DNA of 64,000 nucleotides, from positions 5,450 to 69,449 of the forward strand of contig VXOH01000008.1 of NCBI GenBank assembly GCA_009840135.1, given 5' to 3'. A program made the translations under genes and the position numbers. Source of the stretch: Chloroflexota bacterium. Lineage in GTDB: Bacteria > Chloroflexota > Dehalococcoidia > Lucifugimonadales > UBA3495. This document shows, piece after piece, positions 10,492 to 35,464 of this stretch. The notes beneath the pieces are model-generated. The model searched no databases, had not been told where the DNA came from, and saw nothing but the letters and a program-made list of their open reading frames with translations. How positions within the stretch are numbered: position 1 is the stretch's first letter; every line of letters starts with the position of its first letter.

Positions 10492-11361
10492 TCATTCAAC
10501 CTGGCAGTCCAGACCCAGGCTCTGCAGCGCCTGCCGCAAGTCCGCCGGAAGCCGGGACCGGAACTCGACATACTCACCGCTGGAAGGATGACTGAACGCC
10601 AGAAAACTGGCGTGCAGGAATTGCCGCGAAATCACGAGGTTACGACGCCCATAAAGGGGGTCTCCAAACAGGGGGTAGCCCAGGTACGCCATGTGGACTC
10701 GAATCTGGTGGGTGCGGCCCGTTTCCAGATCCAGCTCCAGCAGGGCATGGTTGTCCCATTCCTTCACCACCCGGTAGGAGGTCCGAGATTCCCTTCCGCC
10801 GAGGACAACGGCCATACGCTTACGATTCCTGGGGTCCCGGGCGATGGGTGCATCAATTACCTCTTCTTCCTGGGGGGGTACTCCCACCGTCAAGGCCAGG
10901 TAACCCTTCCGTACGTGGCGCTCCTTTATCTGGGCGGTCAGACTGTGGTGCGCCTTCTCTGACTTGGCTACCACCATGAGGCCCGAAGTATCCTTGTCCA
11001 GCCGATGCACTATCCCGGGTCTGAGGACCCCTCCTATACCCCTGATGTCGGGGCACAGGGCCAGCAGGGCGTTGACCAGGGTGCCATCCGAGTGCCCCGG
11101 CCCGGGATGTACCGACAAGCCGGCGGGCTTTTCCACTACAGCCAGTTCAGAGTCCTGGAAAATAACCGAAACCGGGATGTCCTGAGGCTCCAGATCCAAC
11201 TCCCTGGGGGGCGGCACTGTAAGTACCACACAGTCGCCGCCGCGAACCTTTTGAGACGGACGGGCGACCCTGCCGTTCAGCGTCACCAGTCCCTGCTTAA
11301 TCAGCGAATGGATGCGGCTGCGAGTCAGGGAACGCTCCCGGTCCGAGACAAAGCGGTCCAG
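10492..11361 (-). CDS. rluD: 23S rRNA pseudouridine synthase, RluD/RluA family (S4 domain plus catalytic domain). The start is unresolved.
   Basis: The catalytic motif is HRLDKDTSGLMVVAK. The S4-like segment RLDRFVSDRERSLTRSRIHSLIKQGLVTLNG lies upstream of the first GTG at 11286. The frame is open back to 11445 but contains only CTG or ATC as possible starts. The end given here is the in-frame CTG at 11361. Confidence 0.8.
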   Translation of the reverse strand: MDRFVSDRERSLTRSRIHSLIKQGLVTLNGRVARPSQKVRGGDCVVLTVPPPRELDLEPQDIPVSVIFQDSELAVVEKPAGLSVHPGPGHSDGTLVNALLALCPDIRGIGGVLRPGIVHRLDKDTSGLMVVAKSEKAHHSLTAQIKERHVRKGYLALTVGVPPQEEEVIDAPIARDPRNRKRMAVVLGGRESRTSYRVVKEWDNHALLELDLETGRTHQIRVHMAYLGYPLFGDPLYGRRNLVISRQFLHASFLAFSHPSSGEYVEFRSRLPADLRQALQSLGLDCQVE

Positions 11362-11445
11362 GCGGCTCGCCCCGGAGGATGCAGTGTATTCTTTCCTTTG
11401 GTTGATATTCTTGTCCTTGACTTTCGTCCTGCGCTTGAGGAGGAA

Positions 11446-12288
11446 CTACCTCCGTTGGAGCCTTCTTCGCAGGTGGCGAGCTTCGGCGCGGGGCAAGTAT
11501 GCTGCGCGGCAAGGGTACCTCCTCCGCGCCCGGTAGCGGCCGCACCCAGCGCAGCGCCCGCGCCGCCTGACCTGATAATTCCTTCTGGGCTCGGTGTCGG
11601 CCTCGGACTCCGGGGACGCTTCCCTTCCTCCGCCCGGTCTCAGCAGCACCCAGCCCAGCAGTGCCAGCCCGGAAACGATAGAAGCGTCGGCCAGGTTAAA
11701 AATGGGCCAAATGCCTATGTCAATGAAGTCGGTTACCGCACCCAACCGGAAACGGTCCAGCAGATTACCCACGGCGCCGCCGAACTGGAGGGCAAGGCTG
11801 AGACGGAGCAGATTGCCGGGCCGTTCCTGGCTATGATAAATCAAGGCCAGAACGGCTATACCCACAAAGGAGACAAAAATCAGCGGCGTGTTGAACCCCT
11901 GCAGGATGCCGAAGGCGCTGCCGGTGTTTTCCGCATGGGTAAAACGGAAGAATCCCGTCGCCGGATAAGAATGCCCGAAGGGCAAATAAGCCCGGACCAG
12001 GAACTTGGTCAGTTGGTCCAGCAGGAGGAAAATAGCCGCGAGTTGGAGGAGGTCGAAATCCCGGTAAATCGGCCGTTTGCGAAAGACCGGTTTCCCTTCA
12101 GGTTCTGAAGCAGCCACGGGAGCGACCGACGTCGGTGTGGCAGCAACGCTGTCGCTTGTCGCAGGCCCGGTACTCGGAGATTCACTGTGGGAGTTGCTGC
12201 CAGGCGTCCTGGGTTCTTCTAATTGGGAAAAGCCGTCAACTGTCTCGGAGCCTGGCTGGTTTTCCTCCTGGTCGTGGGACTGTTGCAT
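11446..12288 (-). CDS. lspA: Signal peptidase II (lipoprotein signal peptidase) with a low-complexity N-terminal extension and an Arg-rich C-terminal tail
   Basis: The core reads FRFTHAENTGSAFG ... GGAVGNLLDRFRLGAVTDFID ... IFNLADASI, with the catalytic Asp residues. The ATG at 12288 is preferred over the TTG at 12339, which lies inside the upstream hydrolase gene. Confidence 0.85.
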   Translation of the reverse strand: MQQSHDQEENQPGSETVDGFSQLEEPRTPGSNSHSESPSTGPATSDSVAATPTSVAPVAASEPEGKPVFRKRPIYRDFDLLQLAAIFLLLDQLTKFLVRAYLPFGHSYPATGFFRFTHAENTGSAFGILQGFNTPLIFVSFVGIAVLALIYHSQERPGNLLRLSLALQFGGAVGNLLDRFRLGAVTDFIDIGIWPIFNLADASIVSGLALLGWVLLRPGGGREASPESEADTEPRRNYQVRRRGRCAGCGRYRARRRYPCRAAYLPRAEARHLRRRLQRR

Positions 12289-12295
12289 CGGGAGA

Positions 12296-12937
12296 CTACT
12301 TGAGATTCTCCGCGAAAAATTCGGCGACCGGCCCCACAAGCTGCCGCTCCAAACCGCCCCAGAAATGATCGGCGCCGTTCACCACCTCATAACGGGGAGA
12401 GCGGGCAAAGGCATCCAGGTTGTCCTGCAGATCTTCGGCTTCTACCAGTTTGTCGCGGCTTCCGGTGATAATCATCGTGGGAGTCTTCGACTTTTTCAGG
12501 GGGGTGTCGGAAAGAGCTCGAATATTGGGGGAAACGAGGGCAATGCTCCTGGCTTTCTTCTGCACGGCGGAACTGCCCAGAATCACCGATGTGCCAAAAG
12601 AGTAGCCAACCAGGCCCAGCTTGCCGCCATCTACGTTGGGCCAGGCTTTCATCAAATCGAAGGCTCCCAGCACTTCCTGGTGTTCCTGCTCTCCCTTGGT
12701 GTGCTCGCCGTCACTGTTGCCCACGCCCCGGAAATTGAACCGGATAGTAGCGAACCCCTGCTCGACCAGGGCGAAGGAAACGGCAATGACAACATTGTTG
12801 TCCATGTTGCCGCCAAACAGAGGGTGGGGATGGCAAATTACCACGCCTGGAATGGGGCTGCCCACGTCGTCGGGCGTGGCGACTATACCCTCGAAATTCA
12901 TTCCCTTGGCCTTGAAACTGACCGCGCTTTGCCGCAT
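12296..12937 (-). CDS. Alpha/beta hydrolase (COG2945-like)
   Basis: 213 aa. The segment GVVICHPHPLFGGNMDNNVV and the nucleophile elbow GYSFG are present. Confidence 0.7.
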   Translation of the reverse strand: MRQSAVSFKAKGMNFEGIVATPDDVGSPIPGVVICHPHPLFGGNMDNNVVIAVSFALVEQGFATIRFNFRGVGNSDGEHTKGEQEHQEVLGAFDLMKAWPNVDGGKLGLVGYSFGTSVILGSSAVQKKARSIALVSPNIRALSDTPLKKSKTPTMIITGSRDKLVEAEDLQDNLDAFARSPRYEVVNGADHFWGGLERQLVGPVAEFFAENLK

Positions 12938-13051
12938 TTGCCGTCCTCCAGGGGACCCACCTGTTAACTCAGTTCATATTAGAAGACTCATTAGAGTTTG
13001 GCAAGGAATCCTGCTAGAATAGCCGGAATCCTTCATACGGGAGCGCCATAC

Positions 13052-14113
13052 ATGAACGTGATTGATTTGCGGAGCGATACCATCACCCACCCTACGGATG
13101 CCATGCGGCAGGCAATGGCCGAAGCCGAGGTGGGTGACGATGTCTACGGGGAGGACCCTTCAATAAATTTGCTTGAGCAGAAGGCCGCCCAGCTGCTGGG
13201 CAAGGAGGCCGGCCTGCTGACGGCCAGCGGGACCATGAGCAACCTGGTAGCTGCGCTGACCTATTGCCACCGGGGCGATGAAGTCATTATGGGCGACCAG
13301 GCCCACATGTTCTGGAACGAATCGGCTGGCGTGTCCGCGTTGGCCGGGGCGCAGGTTCGCCTGGTGCCAAATGACGACCAGGGCCGAATTGACCCCCAGG
13401 ATTTGGCCGCAGCCATCCGCCCCAGGGGCAACGTACACATGCCACCCACCACCATGGTGTGCCTGGAAAACACCCACAACCGATGCAGCGGCGCCGCCCT
13501 CACGCCCCAGGACACCAGAAGGGTAGCCGACGTAGCCCACGAGGCCGGCGCCAGCGTACACATGGACGGGGCCCGCATCTTCAACGCGGCAGTGGGGCTG
13601 GAAGTGCCCCCAAGCGAACTGGTGAAGGATGTGGACGACGTGTCTTTCTGCCTTTCCAAGGCGCTCAGTTGCCCGGTTGGGTCCGTCCTTTGCGGGACCG
13701 AGGAATTTATCGGGGAAGCGCGACGCTGGCGTAAAATGGTTGGCGGGGGCATGCGGCAGGCCGGGGTGCTAGCGGCAGCGGGACTGGTAGGCCTGGACAC
13801 CATGATAGAGCGTCTGGCCGATGACCACGCCAATGCTCGCCGGCTGGCCCAGGGTCTTTCGCGAATTGAAGGCATCAACGTTGATCCCGAAAGCATCCAG
13901 ACCAACATTGTTATATTTGAGATTGATCCATCCATCGGAACCGCTCCGGAAGTGCTGCAAGCGCTGGCGGAGGCAGGCGTTAAGGTAACTCCTTCCCGCA
14001 CCCAGACCCTGAGGATGGTAACCCACCGCCAAATCAGCGGGGATGACGTAGAAGACGCCCTGGCAAGGGTTTCGGAGGTGATGGAGAAACTTGGAGCGAC
14101 AAGAAGCAGTTAA
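13052..14113 (+). CDS. ltaE: Low-specificity L-threonine aldolase (PLP-dependent)
   Basis: The N-terminus reads MNVIDLRSDTITHPTDAMRQAM..GDDVYGEDPSIN and the PLP lysine context is FCLSKALSCPVGS. The ATG at 13052 is preferred over the track start at 12998. Confidence 0.85.
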   Translation: MNVIDLRSDTITHPTDAMRQAMAEAEVGDDVYGEDPSINLLEQKAAQLLGKEAGLLTASGTMSNLVAALTYCHRGDEVIMGDQAHMFWNESAGVSALAGAQVRLVPNDDQGRIDPQDLAAAIRPRGNVHMPPTTMVCLENTHNRCSGAALTPQDTRRVADVAHEAGASVHMDGARIFNAAVGLEVPPSELVKDVDDVSFCLSKALSCPVGSVLCGTEEFIGEARRWRKMVGGGMRQAGVLAAAGLVGLDTMIERLADDHANARRLAQGLSRIEGINVDPESIQTNIVIFEIDPSIGTAPEVLQALAEAGVKVTPSRTQTLRMVTHRQISGDDVEDALARVSEVMEKLGATRSS

Positions 14114-28356: not shown

Positions 28357-29256
28357 ATGACACCCTACGTTAATGGTAACAAACAGGCCAAAGCTGAGGC
28401 AAAACCCGGAGCGCTGAAATCAGGCGCTTTGGAGGAGGCTTGGCAACGACTGGAATCCATTCTTCAGGATATGGAGTCCGTCATCGTTGCTTTTTCGGGG
28501 GGCGTGGACAGCGCCCTGCTGGCTTACGCCGCTCACCGGACCCTGGGAAGCTGTTCCTTGGCCGTAACTGCGGTTTCTCCCGCCCTTGCAAGCAGAGAGC
28601 TTGAAATCGCGACCAGCCTGGCCGCCCAATTGGGGTTTGCTCACCGCACCATCCGAACGTCGGAACTGGAGCGGGAAGGCTACGCGGCCAATGCCCCCAA
28701 CCGCTGCTATTTCTGCAAGACGGAATTGTATTCACACCTCTGCCAGATGGCGAGAGCCGAAGGCTACGCCTGGGTGGCCAACGGGGCAAACCTGGACGAC
28801 CTGGGAGATTATCGCCCGGGACTGCTGGCCGCCGAGGAAAACCAGGTGCGCAGCCCCCTCGTCGAAGCGGCCATGGACAAGGAAATGGTCAGGGAGATGG
28901 CCCTGGGCCTGGAGATTCCGGTCTGGGATAAGCCTGCACAACCCTGCCTTTCTTCCCGGATACCTTATGGCATTCCAGTTACTGCGGAAACTCTGTCCAA
29001 GATAGAGCGCGCCGAGGACTACTTGAAGAGCCTGGGCCTCCGGGAGGTTCGGGCCCGGCACCACGATAACCATTGCCGGGTAGAAGTAGCGGAATCAGAG
29101 ATGGAATTGGCTTTCGCGCATCGCCGGGAGATCTCCGCCAACCTTAAGCGGATTGGCTACCTGTGGATTTCCCTGGACCTTTCGGGGATGAGGTCCGGCA
29201 GCCTTAATGACCAGTTGGGTACGTCTATACCGGTGAAGGGCTCCCCTATTCAGTAG
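28357..29256 (+). CDS. larE: LarE, ATP-dependent sulfur transferase for nickel-pincer cofactor synthesis (PP-loop ATPase)
   Basis: The PP-loop is VAFSGGVDSALLA. The segments NRCYFCK (CxxC) and QPCLSSRIPYG (the conserved Cys of LarE) are present. Confidence 0.85.
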   Translation: MTPYVNGNKQAKAEAKPGALKSGALEEAWQRLESILQDMESVIVAFSGGVDSALLAYAAHRTLGSCSLAVTAVSPALASRELEIATSLAAQLGFAHRTIRTSELEREGYAANAPNRCYFCKTELYSHLCQMARAEGYAWVANGANLDDLGDYRPGLLAAEENQVRSPLVEAAMDKEMVREMALGLEIPVWDKPAQPCLSSRIPYGIPVTAETLSKIERAEDYLKSLGLREVRARHHDNHCRVEVAESEMELAFAHRREISANLKRIGYLWISLDLSGMRSGSLNDQLGTSIPVKGSPIQ

Positions 29257-29438: not shown

Positions 29439-30650
29439 ATGAAAGCGGCCTACATACAGTCCATCGGGGGCGCCAGCGGAGATATGCTCCTGGGCGCCCT
29501 TATTGATTTGGGACTTTCGGTGGAAGCACTGCAGGAAGGTTTGTCGCTCCTGAGTATCAATGGATACGAACTTTCGGCAGCGCAGGAGCACAGGTGTGAG
29601 ATCCGAGGTACAAAGCTCTCAGTTACGCTATCGGAGGACATCAAGCACTCCCCCAGGGCGCTTTCGGGAGTTGTTGCCTCCAGCGACCTGCCCAAACCGG
29701 TAAAGGACAACGCACTTCGGATACTGCGTAACCTCTGGCGTGCCGAGGCCCGGGTACATGGCGAAGAGTCCGGGGACCTCGAACTGGAAGAACTGGGCAC
29801 GGTTGATACCCTGGTTGATATTGCAGGATTTGCCTGGGGCTTGCATCATCTAGGCATTGACCAGGTTTATTCTGCTCCGCTAGTACTGGGGGCTTCATCT
29901 CCCCCGCGCTGGCCGGGGGGGTACTCCAATCCGGCCCCGGCAACCCTGGAACTAGTGGCGGCGGCGGCGGCCCCGATTTCGCCCGAACTGCCGATGCACC
30001 AGGGTGCAGGCGAGCTTACCACCCCTACCGGAGCTGCAATAATCACCTCCCTGGCCAGATTTGAGAGGCCGGCCATGACCGTTGAAGGAGTCGGGGTGGG
30101 GCTTGGCGGCAAGAATCCCGAGGCCTTTCCCAACGTCGTACGAATCTGGCTGGGAAGCACCGAACCGGCAGAATTGCCTGGAAAATCGGTGGCGCCAAAG
30201 CAGGGAAATATTGTTCTACTGGAAACCAACCTGGATGACGCAACCGGAGAGATTCTGGGTTATGCCCAGGAAAGGCTTTTCGACCTTGGCGCGCTGGACG
30301 TCTGGCATACGCCCATCCAGATGAAGAAGAACCGGCCAGGCGTCCTCCTCTCGGTTCTTTTGCCCAGGGAACTGGAAAACGATTGCGTAGAGCTGCTGCT
30401 GAGGGAGACCCCGACCCTGGGGATTCGGAGTCGGGCGGTGGAAAGATACGCCGCAGAGCGGAGAACGGAGACGCTGGAAACCGAATGGGGAAAAGTCCGC
30501 GTCAAAATTAAGTACCTGGCCGGAGAGCCTGTGGCCGCTTCGCCGGAATACGAGGACTGCCGGCAAATTGCCATGAACAAGGGTGTGCCTTTTCAGGCTC
30601 TCTACAAAGAGGTTGAAGGCTCGGCCCGCTTGCGTTACCTGACAAAATGA
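29439..30650 (+). CDS. larC: LarC, nickel insertion protein for nickel-pincer cofactor synthesis (DUF111)
   Basis: The N-terminus is MKAAYIQSIGGASGDMLLGALIDLG. 403 aa, with the typical two-domain LarC length. Confidence 0.9.
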   Translation: MKAAYIQSIGGASGDMLLGALIDLGLSVEALQEGLSLLSINGYELSAAQEHRCEIRGTKLSVTLSEDIKHSPRALSGVVASSDLPKPVKDNALRILRNLWRAEARVHGEESGDLELEELGTVDTLVDIAGFAWGLHHLGIDQVYSAPLVLGASSPPRWPGGYSNPAPATLELVAAAAAPISPELPMHQGAGELTTPTGAAIITSLARFERPAMTVEGVGVGLGGKNPEAFPNVVRIWLGSTEPAELPGKSVAPKQGNIVLLETNLDDATGEILGYAQERLFDLGALDVWHTPIQMKKNRPGVLLSVLLPRELENDCVELLLRETPTLGIRSRAVERYAAERRTETLETEWGKVRVKIKYLAGEPVAASPEYEDCRQIAMNKGVPFQALYKEVEGSARLRYLTK

Positions 30651-30701: not shown

Positions 30702-31847
30702 TCAATAGGACTTGAACAGCTTTCCCCATTCGGTCTTCAGTGCCCCGTTAATGCGGCTCTTGCCGTGGGTGTTCAGCCAGTAGCCGTTGTGGTAGATGTT
30801 TGATGCCATGTAGGCCCAGGCCGCGATGGGACTGCGCAGCAGGGCATTTTCCAGGAACTTCAGCGGCCCCCAATAGATCAGTTTCTGGCCCCGGCTGGCG
30901 AAGGTATTCTCCACTCCCGAAAAACCCCAGTTCACGCCGCTGATATCCTCCCCCACTACCTCGATCTGTGATACGTCACCGCACCCCAATCCACGCTCGT
31001 GGGCCAGCCGGATGAACTTCAGGCTCATGGGATCGAAGCCCATCATGTGAGCCGCCACGGCGTCAATGGCCACCTGGTCGGCGCTGGCCAGAATGCGGTC
31101 TTTTATGTGCCAGCGCATTGCCCGGGGACCGGGGCCGTCCCCCGCGAAAGTACCGTCCATCACCGCAAAGATTCCCGGATGGATTTCCTGCTGGATGGCC
31201 AGCAGGTCCACCAGGGTTTCATGTATAACCGAATGGGTCCAATGGCGCTTTCGGTGCAGCAGGCCCCCAAAGGCGTTCTTCATGGCGCCGGTCATGGTGG
31301 TGAAAACATGGGTCTTCATGGTGGGCAACTGGATGATGTTTTTGCCCGGGAAAATTTCAGGAATTTGAATGCCCTCGGGGAAAATGTCGTCCAGCACCAG
31401 CATTTCAGCTCTGGGCTTGTAATCTATCCAGACGTTTGGGGGCGTATCCAGGTGCACTGTGGGCAGGTCGTACTTGTCCTGGACCGCATTATGCTTGTTG
31501 TTTTCCTCTCCTTCGTAGGAATCCACTACCACCGTGCCGTTGTGTGCGGCGATCAATTCCTGATGGCCCAGTCCCTGCAAGGCCTTCACTACCCCCTCCA
31601 GTTGCCAGGGAGTGGTGGAGCAACCCGGATACCAATGTTGCCACGAAATGTTGATTTTCAACAGCGTCGCCAGGTCTCGTGACAATACCCGTTCCACGCC
31701 GGCCAGCGTCATGGCGCGGCCCACGTCTTCGAGAACGCTTTCGGGCCGGGTCGCAACCACCGAAACCACGGATTTTCGGGTCTCGCCCGAAGCAGGGAGC
31801 TGAGGGAATACCACCGTCGAAGGGGCTGGGTTTTGGGACTGCTGCAT
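30702..31847 (-). CDS. DUF362 domain protein (candidate LarA-like enzyme, see findings)
   Basis: The DUF362 hallmarks LLKINIS...TTP and LPTMKTHVFTTMTGAMKNAFGGL are present. 381 aa with no Fe-S Cys cluster. Confidence 0.75.
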   Translation of the reverse strand: MQQSQNPAPSTVVFPQLPASGETRKSVVSVVATRPESVLEDVGRAMTLAGVERVLSRDLATLLKINISWQHWYPGCSTTPWQLEGVVKALQGLGHQELIAAHNGTVVVDSYEGEENNKHNAVQDKYDLPTVHLDTPPNVWIDYKPRAEMLVLDDIFPEGIQIPEIFPGKNIIQLPTMKTHVFTTMTGAMKNAFGGLLHRKRHWTHSVIHETLVDLLAIQQEIHPGIFAVMDGTFAGDGPGPRAMRWHIKDRILASADQVAIDAVAAHMMGFDPMSLKFIRLAHERGLGCGDVSQIEVVGEDISGVNWGFSGVENTFASRGQKLIYWGPLKFLENALLRSPIAAWAYMASNIYHNGYWLNTHGKSRINGALKTEWGKLFKSY

Positions 31848-31874: not shown

Positions 31875-32864
31875 CTACGGGCCTCCATAGAGCAGCAATA
31901 CCGCTCCGGCCACGATCAACCAGGCCAACACCGATAATACCATAGGAAGGTCTTTGGCTATGAGCAGTTCCGGGTATTCGGCCTGGTCGCTGGTATGCAC
32001 CAGGTAGAGAAATCTGAACAGGCCAAAACACACCAGAGGGATAGTGAGCAGCATGGCGTCATTGTCCGGCAGGTTGGCTGCCTCAATAGTGTAGAGAGCG
32101 TAACTGACCAGAGCAGTGCCCGCGCTTATGTTCAGCAGTTGACCCACAAAGGCAGGTGGATATTGCCGCAGCACATGACGCTGGGCCCCCAGGTCCTCTC
32201 CCGCCAGCCTTACCTCCGAGTAGCGTTTTCCCAGGACGACAAACAGGGCCGCGGCTCCGGTGGTGGTGTAGAGCCAGGGTGATGGGTCAACACCTATCAC
32301 CAGGGCGCCCACAACCGTTCTGATGACATAGCCGCTGGCTACCAAGAGAACGTCGATTACAACCAGGCGCTTCAACCCCAGGGAATACACCAGGTTGATT
32401 GACAGGTAGAGTATGCCCACCGCTCCCAGCAAGGGCTTCACCAAGGCCAGGACCGCTACCCCCGCCACCGAGAGGACGGCCAGGAAGGACAGGGCCAACG
32501 CAGTGCCCACCTGTCCCGACGCCAAAGGGCGATGGCGCTTGGTCGGGTGGTTCCCGTCGGATTCCCGGTCCAGGAGGTCGTTAAACAGGTACACTGCACC
32601 TGACAGCGCGCAGAAAGCCAGGGCGGCCAGCAACACCTGGAAAAGAAGAGCGGGAACCTCCTCGAGCGCCGAAGGGTTCCACGCCAAGTCCACCGCAAAC
32701 AAAAACGGCAGGAACACCAGGCCGTTCTTTATCCACTGCCTGGGACGAAGAGCCGTCAACAAGGCCAGGCCGACATTGTGACGACCCTTTTGTCTATCCT
32801 TTTCCGCTCCTGCCGGGCTATCCACGCCCTTGACCCCCTCCGGCTTCGGGCAACCCGGATTCAT
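31875..32864 (-). CDS. UbiA-family prenyltransferase, decaprenyl-phosphate phosphoribosyltransferase (DPPR synthase)-like
   Basis: The segments LRPRQWIKNGLVFLPFLFA and NDLLDRESDGNHPTKRHRPLASG (the Asp-rich motif of the DPPR-synthase subgroup) are present, with multiple transmembrane segments. The ATG has an AGGAGG Shine-Dalgarno. It overlaps the upstream gene by 47 nt. Confidence 0.8.
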   Translation of the reverse strand: MNPGCPKPEGVKGVDSPAGAEKDRQKGRHNVGLALLTALRPRQWIKNGLVFLPFLFAVDLAWNPSALEEVPALLFQVLLAALAFCALSGAVYLFNDLLDRESDGNHPTKRHRPLASGQVGTALALSFLAVLSVAGVAVLALVKPLLGAVGILYLSINLVYSLGLKRLVVIDVLLVASGYVIRTVVGALVIGVDPSPWLYTTTGAAALFVVLGKRYSEVRLAGEDLGAQRHVLRQYPPAFVGQLLNISAGTALVSYALYTIEAANLPDNDAMLLTIPLVCFGLFRFLYLVHTSDQAEYPELLIAKDLPMVLSVLAWLIVAGAVLLLYGGP

Positions 32865-33816
32865 GGGCTCCGCCTCCTTCCTCCTTTGGGTAGCGCCGCC
32901 TCACCCCGCTCCATTGGAGCCAACCAAAAGCGGCGAAACCGACCAGCACGGCCAACCAAAGGGTGACGAGACGGACAATCAAGGTGCCAGCCGCAGCGGC
33001 ATCGCGGCCCGCACCCATTTGTTGCAGGAGGGTAACCATGGCGCCCTCAGTACCCACCAGTCCTCCGGGCAGGGTCGTGACCGCGCCGGCCAATAAGGAG
33101 CCCGCGTAAATCGGCAGGGAAATCAGGAACCCCAGGTCTGCGCCCAGCCCCTCCATTACCACCCACAATGCCACTCCCTCGCTCAACCAGGCTGCTAGGC
33201 CAAGGATTGAGGCTACGAGAAGGGGCACAGGCCGAGACAACGTCCGCACGCCTTCCCTGGCTTCGACAATGTCGGCCCTCCATCGGCGGATTATGGGCAA
33301 ATCAAGAACGCGTTCATCCTGTCGAGCAGTAGAAAAATAGGCAACCAGCACCAACCCCGCAACAACGGCAACCAGAATGGCTGATACAAAAGCCGGCAAG
33401 AGCGCCAGACCCACCAATGCCATCACCCCTATGGCCACGAGGTCAGTTATGCGTTCCATCAATACTGCCGGCGCTGAGGTTGAAACGGGAATGCCCGCTT
33501 GGTCGCGAAGCAAATAACACTTCAAGAGTTCGCCCAGCTTGCCCGGGGTAATAGTCATCGCCAGCCCGGTAAGAAAAATGAGAATGCTGAGCCGCAGCGG
33601 CACAGAAACAGCGAGAATCTTGAGGTAGTAAGCCCAGCGAAGGAACCGAAGCAGGTAGTTGAGCAGTGCCAGGCCCACCGCCAACAGCAGCGAAGGGAAA
33701 GGAAAACTTGCCATGCGTCCCGAAACCTCCCGGACATCGCCGTAACCGGCCAGTCCGGCAAAAACAAAGCAGGCGAGGACCCCGACAATCAGCAGCTTCT
33801 TGCCCAGGTTAGCCAT
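32818..33816 (-). CDS. Flippase-like / lysylphosphatidylglycerol-synthase transmembrane-region family membrane protein (UPF0104)
   Basis: 332 aa and polytopic, with family-like segments LNYLLRFLRWAYYL and ITPGKLGELLK. It overlaps the end of larB by 8 nt. Confidence 0.65.
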   Translation of the reverse strand: MANLGKKLLIVGVLACFVFAGLAGYGDVREVSGRMASFPFPSLLLAVGLALLNYLLRFLRWAYYLKILAVSVPLRLSILIFLTGLAMTITPGKLGELLKCYLLRDQAGIPVSTSAPAVLMERITDLVAIGVMALVGLALLPAFVSAILVAVVAGLVLVAYFSTARQDERVLDLPIIRRWRADIVEAREGVRTLSRPVPLLVASILGLAAWLSEGVALWVVMEGLGADLGFLISLPIYAGSLLAGAVTTLPGGLVGTEGAMVTLLQQMGAGRDAAAAGTLIVRLVTLWLAVLVGFAAFGWLQWSGVRRRYPKEEGGGAHESGLPEAGGGQGRG

Positions 33817-34627
33817 GCACGGAAACCAGCCGGTTTATTTGCGCCGCCAGGTACCCGGCTCCAAAACCGTTGTCAATGTTGACGGTAGCTACGCCGGGGG
33901 CGCAGCTGTTGAGCATTCCCAGGAGCGCGGACAGGCCTTCAAAACTGGAGCCATAACCGACACTGGTCGGCACCGCAATCACAGGCGCGGAAATCAATCC
34001 GGCAACCACGCTGGCCAGCGCCGCTTCCATGCCGGCCACTACCACCACAACGCGGGCCTCTATCAAACGGTCAAGGCTGGCAAGCAGTCGGTGAAGTCCG
34101 GCGACCCCCACGTCGTTAATGCGTTCCGGCGGGCTGCCCATAAGGGTGGCCGTGAGGGCTGCCTCCTCTGCTACGGGAAGGTCGGCAGTGCCGGCAGTTA
34201 CCACCGTCAGTCCGGACAGACTGGGAAGCGGGGCGTCCGCAGGAACTACGATGGCTTTGGCCAGGAGATTGAAGACAGCATTGGGCGTTATCTTAACGAC
34301 TGACTCAAAGGATGTCTCATCAGTCTTGGTAACCAGGACCGGATTACCCCGGTCCTTCAGGGACCGGACAATTCTGGCAACCTGGTCCGGAGACTTGCCT
34401 CGGCCCAGGACCACCTCGGGAAAGCCGGTTCTCAGCGGGCGATGGTGGTCTATCCTGGCAAATCCCAGGTCTTCGAAGGGGAAATCCCGCAGGTAGGCCA
34501 GCAAATCTTCCACACTGGTGTCGCCCCGCTGCAGTTCTTCCAGCCGGCGGCGCAAGTCCGAAGTAGTCATCTGAATTCGCAAGTCCGCAGTCGCAGTTTG
34601 AATATCCCTACGCGCCATCATAGGCAA
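33809..34627 (-). CDS. larB: LarB, NaAD carboxylase/hydrolase for nickel-pincer cofactor synthesis (PurE-like)
   Basis: The segments TVVTAGTADLPVAEEAALTA, VVVVAGMEAALASVVAG and PVIAVPTSVGYG are present. The start is ambiguous among TTG 34627, ATG 34621 and ATG 34570. Confidence 0.85.
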   Translation of the reverse strand: MPMMARRDIQTATADLRIQMTTSDLRRRLEELQRGDTSVEDLLAYLRDFPFEDLGFARIDHHRPLRTGFPEVVLGRGKSPDQVARIVRSLKDRGNPVLVTKTDETSFESVVKITPNAVFNLLAKAIVVPADAPLPSLSGLTVVTAGTADLPVAEEAALTATLMGSPPERINDVGVAGLHRLLASLDRLIEARVVVVVAGMEAALASVVAGLISAPVIAVPTSVGYGSSFEGLSALLGMLNSCAPGVATVNIDNGFGAGYLAAQINRLVSVHG

Positions 34628-34708
34628 CCCGTTCCAACAGCGTCAAGAAAGGGCAAGTCGCGGCAGGTCTTAGCGCGGTACTGCAGGCAACCCTTGCGCG
34701 TCCGGGCG

Positions 34709-35464
34709 TCAGCACGCGGACAGGAGGGGCAGTATCACCTGCTCAATTGCCACCGCCAACCCATCCTCCTCAACAGGAGGAGCCACAAAGTCAGCTATAT
34801 GCTTCATTTCCTCAGGGGCCGATGCCATGGCAATGCGGAATCCGGCGACCTCCAGCATGGGAAGGTCATTGTAACTGTCTCCGGCCGCTATGAACTGCCG
34901 GGTACTCATGCCCTGGATTTCGGCAAGGTGGCGCGCGGCCTCTCCTTTGTGAACTCCGGCCGCGGTAAAATCCACAGCCCACCAACCGTTGTAATGAAGG
35001 TAGACCTTAACCACGTGCAGGTTGTCCTCGGTCCCGAACATGGATACGAACTCGTCTGCTTCCTGCTCAGGAATATCCATGGCAGAAATGCGGGTAAGGT
35101 CCCATTGGCTTATCTGACTCATGGATGTTGCGTCGCCGGAGGGATGCGTGCCAATGAAATTTATGCCTTTTCTGTCCAGGAGCTCGATGATCCTGAGCGC
35201 CTGTCCCGCTTCCATGTGGCTGTTCCAGAGCAACTTCCCGTCCCTGGGGTCCAACAGTGTAGCTCCCCCGTTACATATCTGGGGAGCGTCAAGGCCCAGT
35301 TGTCGGGCGTACGCCATCAGGTCTGAAGCTCTACGGCCGGTGGCAATGGAAACGGGGATGCGTTGGGAAACCGATTCGATTGCTTGCTGAACCCGCTGAG
35401 AAATGGTGTCGGTTACCATCAGGGTTCCGTCCAGGTCCACCAGCATGGCTGAAAAGCGAGTCAT
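34709..35464 (-). CDS. HAD-IIB (Cof-type) phosphatase
   Basis: Motif I is MLVDLDGTLM. The cap domain is present, and the C-terminal motif is AAGDSYNDLPML. Confidence 0.8.
   Translation of the reverse strand: MTRFSAMLVDLDGTLMVTDTISQRVQQAIESVSQRIPVSIATGRRASDLMAYARQLGLDAPQICNGGATLLDPRDGKLLWNSHMEAGQALRIIELLDRKGINFIGTHPSGDATSMSQISQWDLTRISAMDIPEQEADEFVSMFGTEDNLHVVKVYLHYNGWWAVDFTAAGVHKGEAARHLAEIQGMSTRQFIAAGDSYNDLPMLEVAGFRIAMASAPEEMKHIADFVAPPVEEDGLAVAIEQVILPLLSAC

Follow-up and report, generated by a model that had tools for sequence, protein, structure and literature searches.

A DUF362 protein encoded in a 64,000-nucleotide stretch of a Chloroflexota genome (contig VXOH01000008.1, positions 5,450 to 69,449; the whole stretch is hereafter called the window) is modelled with the fold of the N-terminal domain of the nickel-dependent racemase LarA, and, as far as its sequence can tell, very probably carries a LarA-like site in register with that of LarA itself. 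Taken as a whole, the evidence is best explained, albeit tentatively, by a one-domain LarA-like enzyme that would use the nickel-pincer nucleotide (NPN) to act on a polyprenyl-phospho-pentose, perhaps by 2'-epimerisation. The evidence comprises the structural relation to LarA, the residues conserved across the clade, the recurrent pairing of the gene with one encoding a UbiA-family enzyme, and the genes of NPN biosynthesis (larB, larC, and larE) that surround it in the window.

Relation of the DUF362 protein to LarA

The initial annotation of this DNA had proposed that DUF362 might be distantly homologous to LarA, and this was supported both by the hidden Markov model (HMM) of the Pfam family and by structural comparison. 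The Pfam DUF362 HMM matches genuine LarA at an E-value of 1e-5 (25.8-26.1 bits, gathering score 24) over LarA residues 82-245. The window protein itself scores 82.5 bits against PF04015 (cut-off 24, E 5.6e-23), with residues 62-266 aligned to profile positions 2-199, and no transmembrane segment was predicted in it. An AlphaFold2 (AF2) model built from 144 homologues, with a predicted local distance difference test score (pLDDT) of 93.4 and a predicted template modelling score (pTM) of 0.92, shows a single LarA_N-like domain followed by a C-terminal extension that is helical over residues 300-381; an AlphaFold prediction from the single sequence, having a pLDDT of 31.5, was discarded. The seven best matches of this model in a Foldseek search of the PDB belonged to the LarA family only, namely 4NAR, 9Q3J (three chains), 7S91, 9Q3K, and 6C1W, with probabilities of 0.95-1.0, E-values of 8e-5 to 7.5e-3, and 249-298 aligned columns. 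The next matches reached a probability of 0.66 at most, and none of them was convincing. The modest template modelling scores of the LarA matches (0.34-0.39) are explained by the second domain of LarA, which the DUF362 protein does not have.

The homology itself is already known and is not new, given that PF04015 and PF09861 (DUF2088/Lar_N) are both placed in Pfam clan CL0471 and that DUF362 sequences have served as outgroup in a LarA tree (PMC11770544). The true lactate racemases P0275, P0276, and P0277 likewise exceed the gathering score of PF04015 and are annotated with this family beside Lar_N and LarA_C. Several other searches returned nothing significant. The Lar_N (PF09861) model, by which along with COG3875 the LarA superfamily is delimited in the literature, gave no match to the query even at E <=10, LarA_C (PF21113) was not found in the query by a Pfam scan, and LarA was not recovered by phmmer or subfamily-HMM searches of the PDB sequences. 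The hhalign comparison of either subfamily profile, A1 or A2, with the shallow profile A3 of LarA remained at E 0.13-0.2 with a probability of <1%, its global mode being meaningless. Both hhalign and hmmsearch --max with the subfamily HMM against LarA aligned the first shared motif alone (LLKINISWQHWYPGCSTTP in the query, IVIISSDHTRPVPSHIITP in LarA).

The segment that attracted attention at the outset, H180-H209 (HVFTTMTGAMKNAFGGLLHRKRHWTHSVIH), is the top-scoring and best-conserved part of the PF04015 match, contributing +17 bits over residues 181-190 and +15 bits over residues 191-205. It contains H180, G187, K190, N191, R201, H202, H205, and H209, runs in the AF2 model from where a strand ends, through a turn containing Gly, into the first part of a long helix (residues 201-222), and is probably the cofactor-binding site of a one-domain LarA-like enzyme. 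Its description in the initial annotation was accurate with regard to the H180-x9-K190 spacing, the T186-G187-A188-x-K190 core (S-G-G-x-K in LarA), and the His residues at +8, +12, +15, and +19 from the Lys. The 33 residues quoted (177-209) were also correct in sequence, with coordinates 9 nt too short, which leaves MKT (177-179) trivially outside 31221-31310. When checked against the complete Lactobacillus plantarum LarA sequence in 5HUQ, the 29-residue LarA segment given there proved to be exact, corresponding to residues 172-200 of 5HUQ, 6C1W, and 8EZF with H174, K184, and H200 correctly placed, while the upstream LarA segment given as IIISSDHTRP was wrong, the actual letters being NIVIISSDHTRPVPSHIITP. 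The pairwise resemblance on which the comparison had been built does not rise above chance. The ungapped 27-mer of query and LarA has a BLOSUM62 score of 28-30, within the top 6 of 141,290 windows; a window scoring equally well or better was obtained from 51% of shuffled LarA sequences, and BLASTP of the DUF362 query against LarA yielded no significant match.

The residue correspondence is supported by an independent route, in which the PF04015 profile served as a common ruler, both proteins being truncated at chosen residues and the ends of the resulting alignments read. Query G187 and LarA G181 both fall directly on profile position 118, and query K190 and LarA K184 on position 121, where the Lys-truncated fragments of both proteins end. 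Position 136 is occupied by query H205 and LarA H200, three LarA fragments ending exactly there. Query H180 lies directly at position 111, to which LarA H174 is assigned indirectly, since LarA residue 113 corresponds to position 50 and G181 to position 118 with no net insertion or deletion between them. The profile coordinates thereby equate H180, K190, and H205 with H174, K184, and H200 of LarA.

Conservation was followed in a genome set of 80 species-level loci (61-92% identity), which represent Dehalococcoidia, Anaerolineae, and Thermomicrobia as well as a small number of other phyla, and in a more distant metagenome set, for which 71 open reading frames (ORFs; 40-66% identity) were used in residue counts and 83 loci (789 kb) in the study of neighbours. 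H180, K190, and H205 are each invariant in 81/81 and 71/71 orthologues (152 in total). In the genome set K178, H180, K190, N191, R201, H202, and H205 are 100% conserved, H209 reaches 96%, and H198 is variable; K178, H180, K190, R201, H202, H205, D214, D231, D257, and D262 are invariant in the metagenome set, with N191 present in 69/71. Among representatives of 50%-identity clusters, which are not phylogenetically independent, 85 have both K190 and H205, 32 have neither, and 10 are discordant; by this count the two residues are kept or lost together. The relatives devoid of K190 additionally lose T186, N191, and N103. The contrast that the initial annotation had suggested, between DUF362 proteins neighbouring lar genes and those that do not, brought out no difference, His, Lys, and His being equally invariant in both groups.

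Several further features of the relatives were observed in passing. Eight of them (P0122, P0123, P0134, P0136, P0139, P0169, P0234, and P0253) end in a hydrophobic, membrane-anchor-like tail of ~20-25 residues, which is missing from the window protein; all of the eight except P0139 lack K190. Seven homologues (P0121, P0129, P0133, P0226, P0125, P0130, and P0190) are interrupted by inteins of ~150 to 470 aa, some with a middle part large enough for a homing endonuclease. Their insertion site lies around the K178/T179 junction (window codons ~31311-31316, minus strand), exactly between the two residues in the four cases inspected, with the junction pattern …LPTxK | C…[HS]N | T/C-H… falling within the flagged motif. 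Inteins typically insert at functionally critical sites. NCBIfam model NF052623, the "Npun_F2552 family", which takes its name from a gene of Nostoc punctiforme, matches both the window protein and P0131 weakly yet significantly (E 4e-8 and 2e-11, respectively) over the motif region; as cyanobacteria possess larBCE and lack larA, a check of the Lys/His pair may be worthwhile in this family. No paper on "Npun_F2552" was found in the literature searched.

Genomic context: the UbiA partner and the lar genes

Over 163 related loci, the most recurrent neighbour of the DUF362 gene is a UbiA-family gene of the decaprenyl-phosphate phosphoribosyltransferase type. Its product in the window scores 209.7 bits against NF008978 (cut-off 207) and 218 bits against NF008977 (cut-off 234), and a metagenome representative attains 301.9 bits against the latter model. 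Among loci with enough flanking sequence, the gene immediately upstream of DUF362, in the same orientation, was UbiA in 18/71 of the genome set and 20/63 of the metagenome set. Of the 26 metagenome loci flanked by 3 kb or more on each side, 19 contained either UbiA or a flippase-like gene; the placement of a flippase-like gene next to DUF362 also recurs in divergent loci. Mere local synteny was considered as the cause of the UbiA adjacency and is refuted by the metagenome set with its 40-66% identity. The other recurrent neighbours encode a PHP phosphoesterase, ArnE/F-like SMR proteins, a protein with multiple transmembrane segments and TPR repeats, GT2 and EamA proteins, and an AftB-like protein with eight transmembrane segments and weak similarity to the terminal arabinofuranosyltransferase. 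It is probable that the function of this DUF362 clade is tied to the UbiA pathway.

The neighbour set looks like the components of a polyprenyl-phospho-pentose pathway, which seems undescribed, with the HAD gene as a candidate for the 5'-phosphatase of the phosphoribosyl-lipid. In the mycobacterial decaprenyl-phospho-arabinose (DPA) pathway (Rv3806c, Rv3807c, Rv3790, and Rv3791), 2'-epimerisation is carried out by DprE1/DprE2. No protein of the DprE1/DprE2-like, FAD-oxidase, or SDR families was found among the recurrent neighbours, and the pathway step without a candidate is the one performed by DprE1/DprE2 in mycobacteria, which leaves a slot that the DUF362 protein could occupy.

In the window (Table 1), the HAD phosphatase, larB, flippase-like, UbiA, and DUF362 genes form a co-directional string on the minus strand with gaps of 81, -8, -47, and 27 bp, the negative value of -8 reflecting the overlap of the larB stop with the start of the flippase-like gene and the last value separating UbiA from the DUF362 gene downstream of it. 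The larE and larC genes converge on this string, with a distance of 51 bp between the end of larC and the DUF362 stop. LarB, LarE, and LarC each score above their NCBIfam equivalog cut-offs, and a Pfam scan of 26 ORFs of the 64-kb window outside the cluster (every one of the 16 with 380 aa or more, and 10 shorter ones) revealed no LarA.

Table 1. Features of the DUF362 locus in window coordinates.
Feature	Position	Strand	Basis or remarks
DUF362 (PF04015) gene, 381 aa	30702..31847	-	ORF call and Pfam
Flagged segment, H180-H209	31221..31310	-	Translation
His180 codon	31308..31310	-	Putative counterpart of LarA catalytic His174; PF04015 position 111
Lys190 codon	31278..31280	-	Putative counterpart of LarA Lys184 (thioamide tether to NPN); PF04015 position 121
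His205 codon	31233..31235	-	Putative counterpart of LarA His200 (Ni ligand); PF04015 position 136
First shared motif, L62-P80	31608..31664	-	Weak alignment to LarA I66-P84
larE (sulfur insertase)	28357..29256	+	TIGR00268, 324 bits (cut-off 150); convergent with the DUF362 string
larC (nickel insertion/cyclometallase)	29439..30650	+	Pfam Ni_insertion, E 7e-114; NCBIfam LarC1, LarC2
UbiA-family decaprenyl-phosphate phosphoribosyltransferase-type gene	31875..32864	-	Pfam UbiA, NCBIfam
Flippase-like membrane protein (LPG_synthase_TM / TIGR00374)	32818..33816	-	Pfam/NCBIfam
larB (NPN biosynthesis: nicotinic acid adenine dinucleotide carboxylase/hydrolase)	33809..34627	-	NCBIfam LarB, 275.6 bits (cut-off 175)
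Cof-type HAD-IIB sugar-phosphatase-like gene, head of the string	34709..35464	-	Pfam/NCBIfam

The co-location of larB, larC, and larE without larA is shared by this window and 9 of the 80 related genome loci. The order HAD-larB-flippase-UbiA-DUF362 recurs in L001, L022, L164, L167, and L168, the HAD gene being conserved in the syntenic L164 and L167, and L012 has a different co-directional order, larE-larB-flippase-UbiA-DUF362-ychF. In L013 and L016, both without UbiA, DUF362 is followed by an inserted AAA_21/HNH pair and then by larC-larE, while L002, L003, and L006 retain larB alone or larC alone. The insert in L013 and L016 (~11135-13330, two Dehalococcoidia genomes), consisting of an AAA_21 ATPase and an HNH endonuclease, has a mobile or defence-type look. 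Twenty pairs of DUF362 and LarC homologues share a contig-length fingerprint, in four cases with a contig no longer than 7.1 kb; such a fingerprint can prove co-occurrence and never absence, L001 being a known false negative.

Other features of the region were noted as well. The window LarE has a CYFC pair and a PCLSSR cysteine, a three-Cys pattern resembling the [4Fe-4S]-dependent, non-sacrificial LarE of Thermotoga (PMC9283937) and unlike the single-Cys sacrificial type. The number of matches in a promoter and terminator scan of the region was at shuffle level; the best sigma-70-like match (34617-34646, minus strand, 10/12) places its -10 hexamer over the first codons of larB (start 34627), and could drive larB-flippase-UbiA-DUF362 only if the true larB start lies further downstream. 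The window belongs to the housekeeping chromosome (GroEL, GltX, GlnS, GyrB, RecA, IF2, NusA, and RNase Y) of a Dehalococcoidia-type organism.

Proposed mechanism and competing explanations

In the mechanism put forward here, LarB, LarE, and LarC would make the nickel-pincer nucleotide, which would be tethered to Lys190, and the coordination of nickel would be completed by His205. A hydride would be abstracted reversibly, coupled to proton transfer, at a secondary alcohol, with His180 acting as acid/base. More speculatively, the substrate would be the polyprenyl-phospho-ribose that the UbiA enzyme forms and from which the HAD or PHP phosphatase removes a phosphate, and the reaction a one-enzyme, "hidden redox" 2'-epimerisation that proceeds through transient oxidation to a lipid-linked donor of the arabinofuranose type, which may then be flipped and used by GT-C-type transferases. 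The assignment as an epimerase of a lipid-linked pentose, where guilt by association is the whole of the argument and a weakness of the proposal, is doubtful. A broader formulation, whereby the DUF362 clade with the Lys/His pair would constitute a new LarA-related NPN family that epimerises or shuttles hydride on polyprenyl-phospho-ribose, is decidedly doubtful.

The use of NPN by the DUF362 protein is, on the sequence evidence, an evenly balanced question. In its favour, larB lies inside the operon, and larC and larE abut it in the window and its clade. The observations that weigh against it are largely those that favour its main rival, an enzyme of LarA fold that would act on a polyprenyl-phospho-pentose with no NPN, where H180, H202, H205, and H209 together with K178, K190, and Asp residues would form a site for a simple metal or another ligand and the lar genes would serve an enzyme encoded elsewhere; this is a real possibility, if not a probable one. 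No lar gene occurs in any of the 83 distant loci (0/83) or, within 10 kb, in 71 of the 80 genome loci, and the DUF362 residues are invariant all the same. The lar-adjacent loci form one Dehalococcoidia clade that is syntenic over the entire region, including YchF, GNAT, glyoxalase, and Rrf2, and the lar adjacency is therefore partly inherited gene order; moreover, L165 keeps larE-larC with no DUF362 block nearby. In the AF2 model HxxHxxxH is found on one helix, a common metal-binding arrangement, and R201-H202-x2-H205-x3-H209 with H180 could equally well be a direct metal site. The weak hhalign alignment (E 0.13-0.2) pairs query P74 with LarA P78 and P80 with P84, and it sets the invariant Ser68 and the variable His71 against Asp72 and Arg75 of LarA, whose counterparts, by this weak alignment, appear not to be conserved. 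These two LarA residues serve the NPN ribose and the NPN phosphate or substrate carboxylate, respectively (PMC12611868). His108, the second catalytic His of LarA, has no mapped counterpart, the LarA-PF04015 alignment beginning past residue 108 and query residues 94-169 being unaligned; near that region, position 102 is E, H, or Q across the clade and is followed by the invariant N103. The C-terminal domain of LarA, the source of its substrate-binding residues, is missing altogether. Lys at position 121 and His at position 136 are already preferred by the PF04015 profile, such that these residues may be general to a large family whose members often carry Fe-S or CBM domain fusions (PMC5742341). 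What speaks against the rival is that larB is translationally overlapped within the operon, that the lar genes remain beside the module through at least three gene orders, that the conserved Lys and His are the exact tether and nickel ligand of a homologous enzyme and are lost together, and that no other NPN user is visible among the Pfam-scanned ORFs of the window. The neighbours of true LarA homologues are usually substrate genes, not lar genes (PMC7583248), and the non-adjacency of lar genes is therefore uninformative rather than negative.

Should NPN be used, the substrate could instead be a soluble 2-hydroxy acid or sugar, with UbiA and the flippase belonging to an unrelated envelope pathway. 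Characterised LarA homologues do all act on soluble 2-hydroxy acids, and the NPN-dependent hydride transferase NphT on free sugars (PMC7583248, PMC13524815), which fits a protein with no predicted transmembrane segment, but lineages at 40-66% identity have UbiA as the immediate upstream gene, in the same orientation, the flippase, ArnE/F-like, and GT-C-like neighbours recur, the carboxylate-binding LarA_C domain is missing, and some relatives without K190 bear the membrane-anchor-like tail, all of which makes this alternative unlikely. A non-catalytic carrier or storage protein, in which a LarA N-domain holds the cofactor for another enzyme, would account for the presence of only the cofactor-tethering half of LarA and for the position between lar genes; it is very unlikely, considering that a covalent Lys tether is ill suited to hand-over, that H180, K178, T186, N191, R201, H202, D231, D257, and D262 are invariant, and that loci with no lar genes also conserve the protein. 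Finally, the H-x9-K...H resemblance could be a short-motif coincidence with no structural or evolutionary correspondence, as the chance-level pairwise score and the non-significant BLASTP, subfamily hhalign, and HMM searches of PDB sequences might suggest. Pure coincidence is largely refuted, and extremely unlikely, in view of the Pfam HMM that bridges the two families, the four residues in register on its profile, the Foldseek matches to LarA only, and the shared clan.

Relation to known systems and significance

Compared with LarA (PDB 5HUQ, 6C1W, 2YJG, 7S91, 9EIA, 9Q3J, and 4NAR), the DUF362 protein has the same N-domain fold and belongs to the same Pfam clan, with lar biosynthesis genes adjoining it in the window. 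The spacing from His to Lys is 10 in both, whereas that from Lys to His is 15 here, 16 in LarA Lp/Ip, and 26 in LarA Sp/Bw (PMC12611868). In place of a substrate site of the Tyr294/Gln295/Lys298 type the DUF362 protein has its helical C-terminal extension, and its gene context is one of lipid-linked sugars, not of hydroxy-acid metabolism. The clade also differs from other DUF362 proteins in lacking the Fe-S, CBM9, or dockerin fusions reported elsewhere (PMC5742341), and is marked instead by the invariant K178/H180/K190/R201/H202/H205 and by the pairing with a UbiA of the decaprenyl-phosphoryl-5-phosphoribose (DPPR) synthase type.

The likeness to DprE1/DprE2 of the Corynebacterineae is one of functional analogy only. 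The proposed slot is alike, following a phosphoribosyltransferase and a phosphatase and preceding flipping and arabinofuranosyl transfer, and so is the proposed chemistry, oxidation and then reduction at one sugar carbon. DprE1/DprE2, however, are two enzymes that depend on FAD and NADH, pass through a keto intermediate that is free, and have no relation in sequence or fold to the DUF362 protein, a single protein which would keep the hydride on its cofactor.

Another known system is NphT (PMC13524815), which likewise combines lar genes in the absence of larA with a conserved Lys/His pair, the Lys never occurring without the His, much as in the DUF362 clade, and which demonstrates that NPN enzymes outside LarA acting on sugars exist. 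NphT has the TIM-barrel fold of aldo-keto reductases, unrelated to LarA, whereas the DUF362 protein is LarA-related; the neighbourhood-mining study that reported it (2026) sought proteins not homologous to LarA, and DUF362 goes unmentioned in its main text (PMC13524815).

In the searchable literature, no connection of DUF362 to NPN, UbiA, or inteins was found, nor any description of its Lys/His pair, its embedding in a lar operon, or its DPPR-synthase-type pairing. The clade of invariant residues, the joint loss of Lys190 and His205, the UbiA pairing, and the presence of larB inside the operon of one Dehalococcoidia clade thus appear to be undescribed. To our knowledge, only two NPN users other than LarA have been reported, an aldo-keto reductase and an ornithine cyclodeaminase.

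About 15% of the genomes with larBCE have no larA (PMC11796402), and it is in these that the nickel-pincer field seeks such users; DUF362 is an immediately testable candidate. Whatever the cofactor, the UbiA pairing gives DUF362 its first pathway assignment, and it suggests an alternative to the DprE1/DprE2 step, a major mycobacterial drug target. If the reading as an NPN-dependent epimerase of a lipid-linked pentose is true, this would be the first NPN enzyme on a membrane-lipid-linked substrate, and Chloroflexota and many uncultured bacteria would possess a one-enzyme, DprE1/DprE2-independent route to a lipid-linked donor of the arabinofuranose type.

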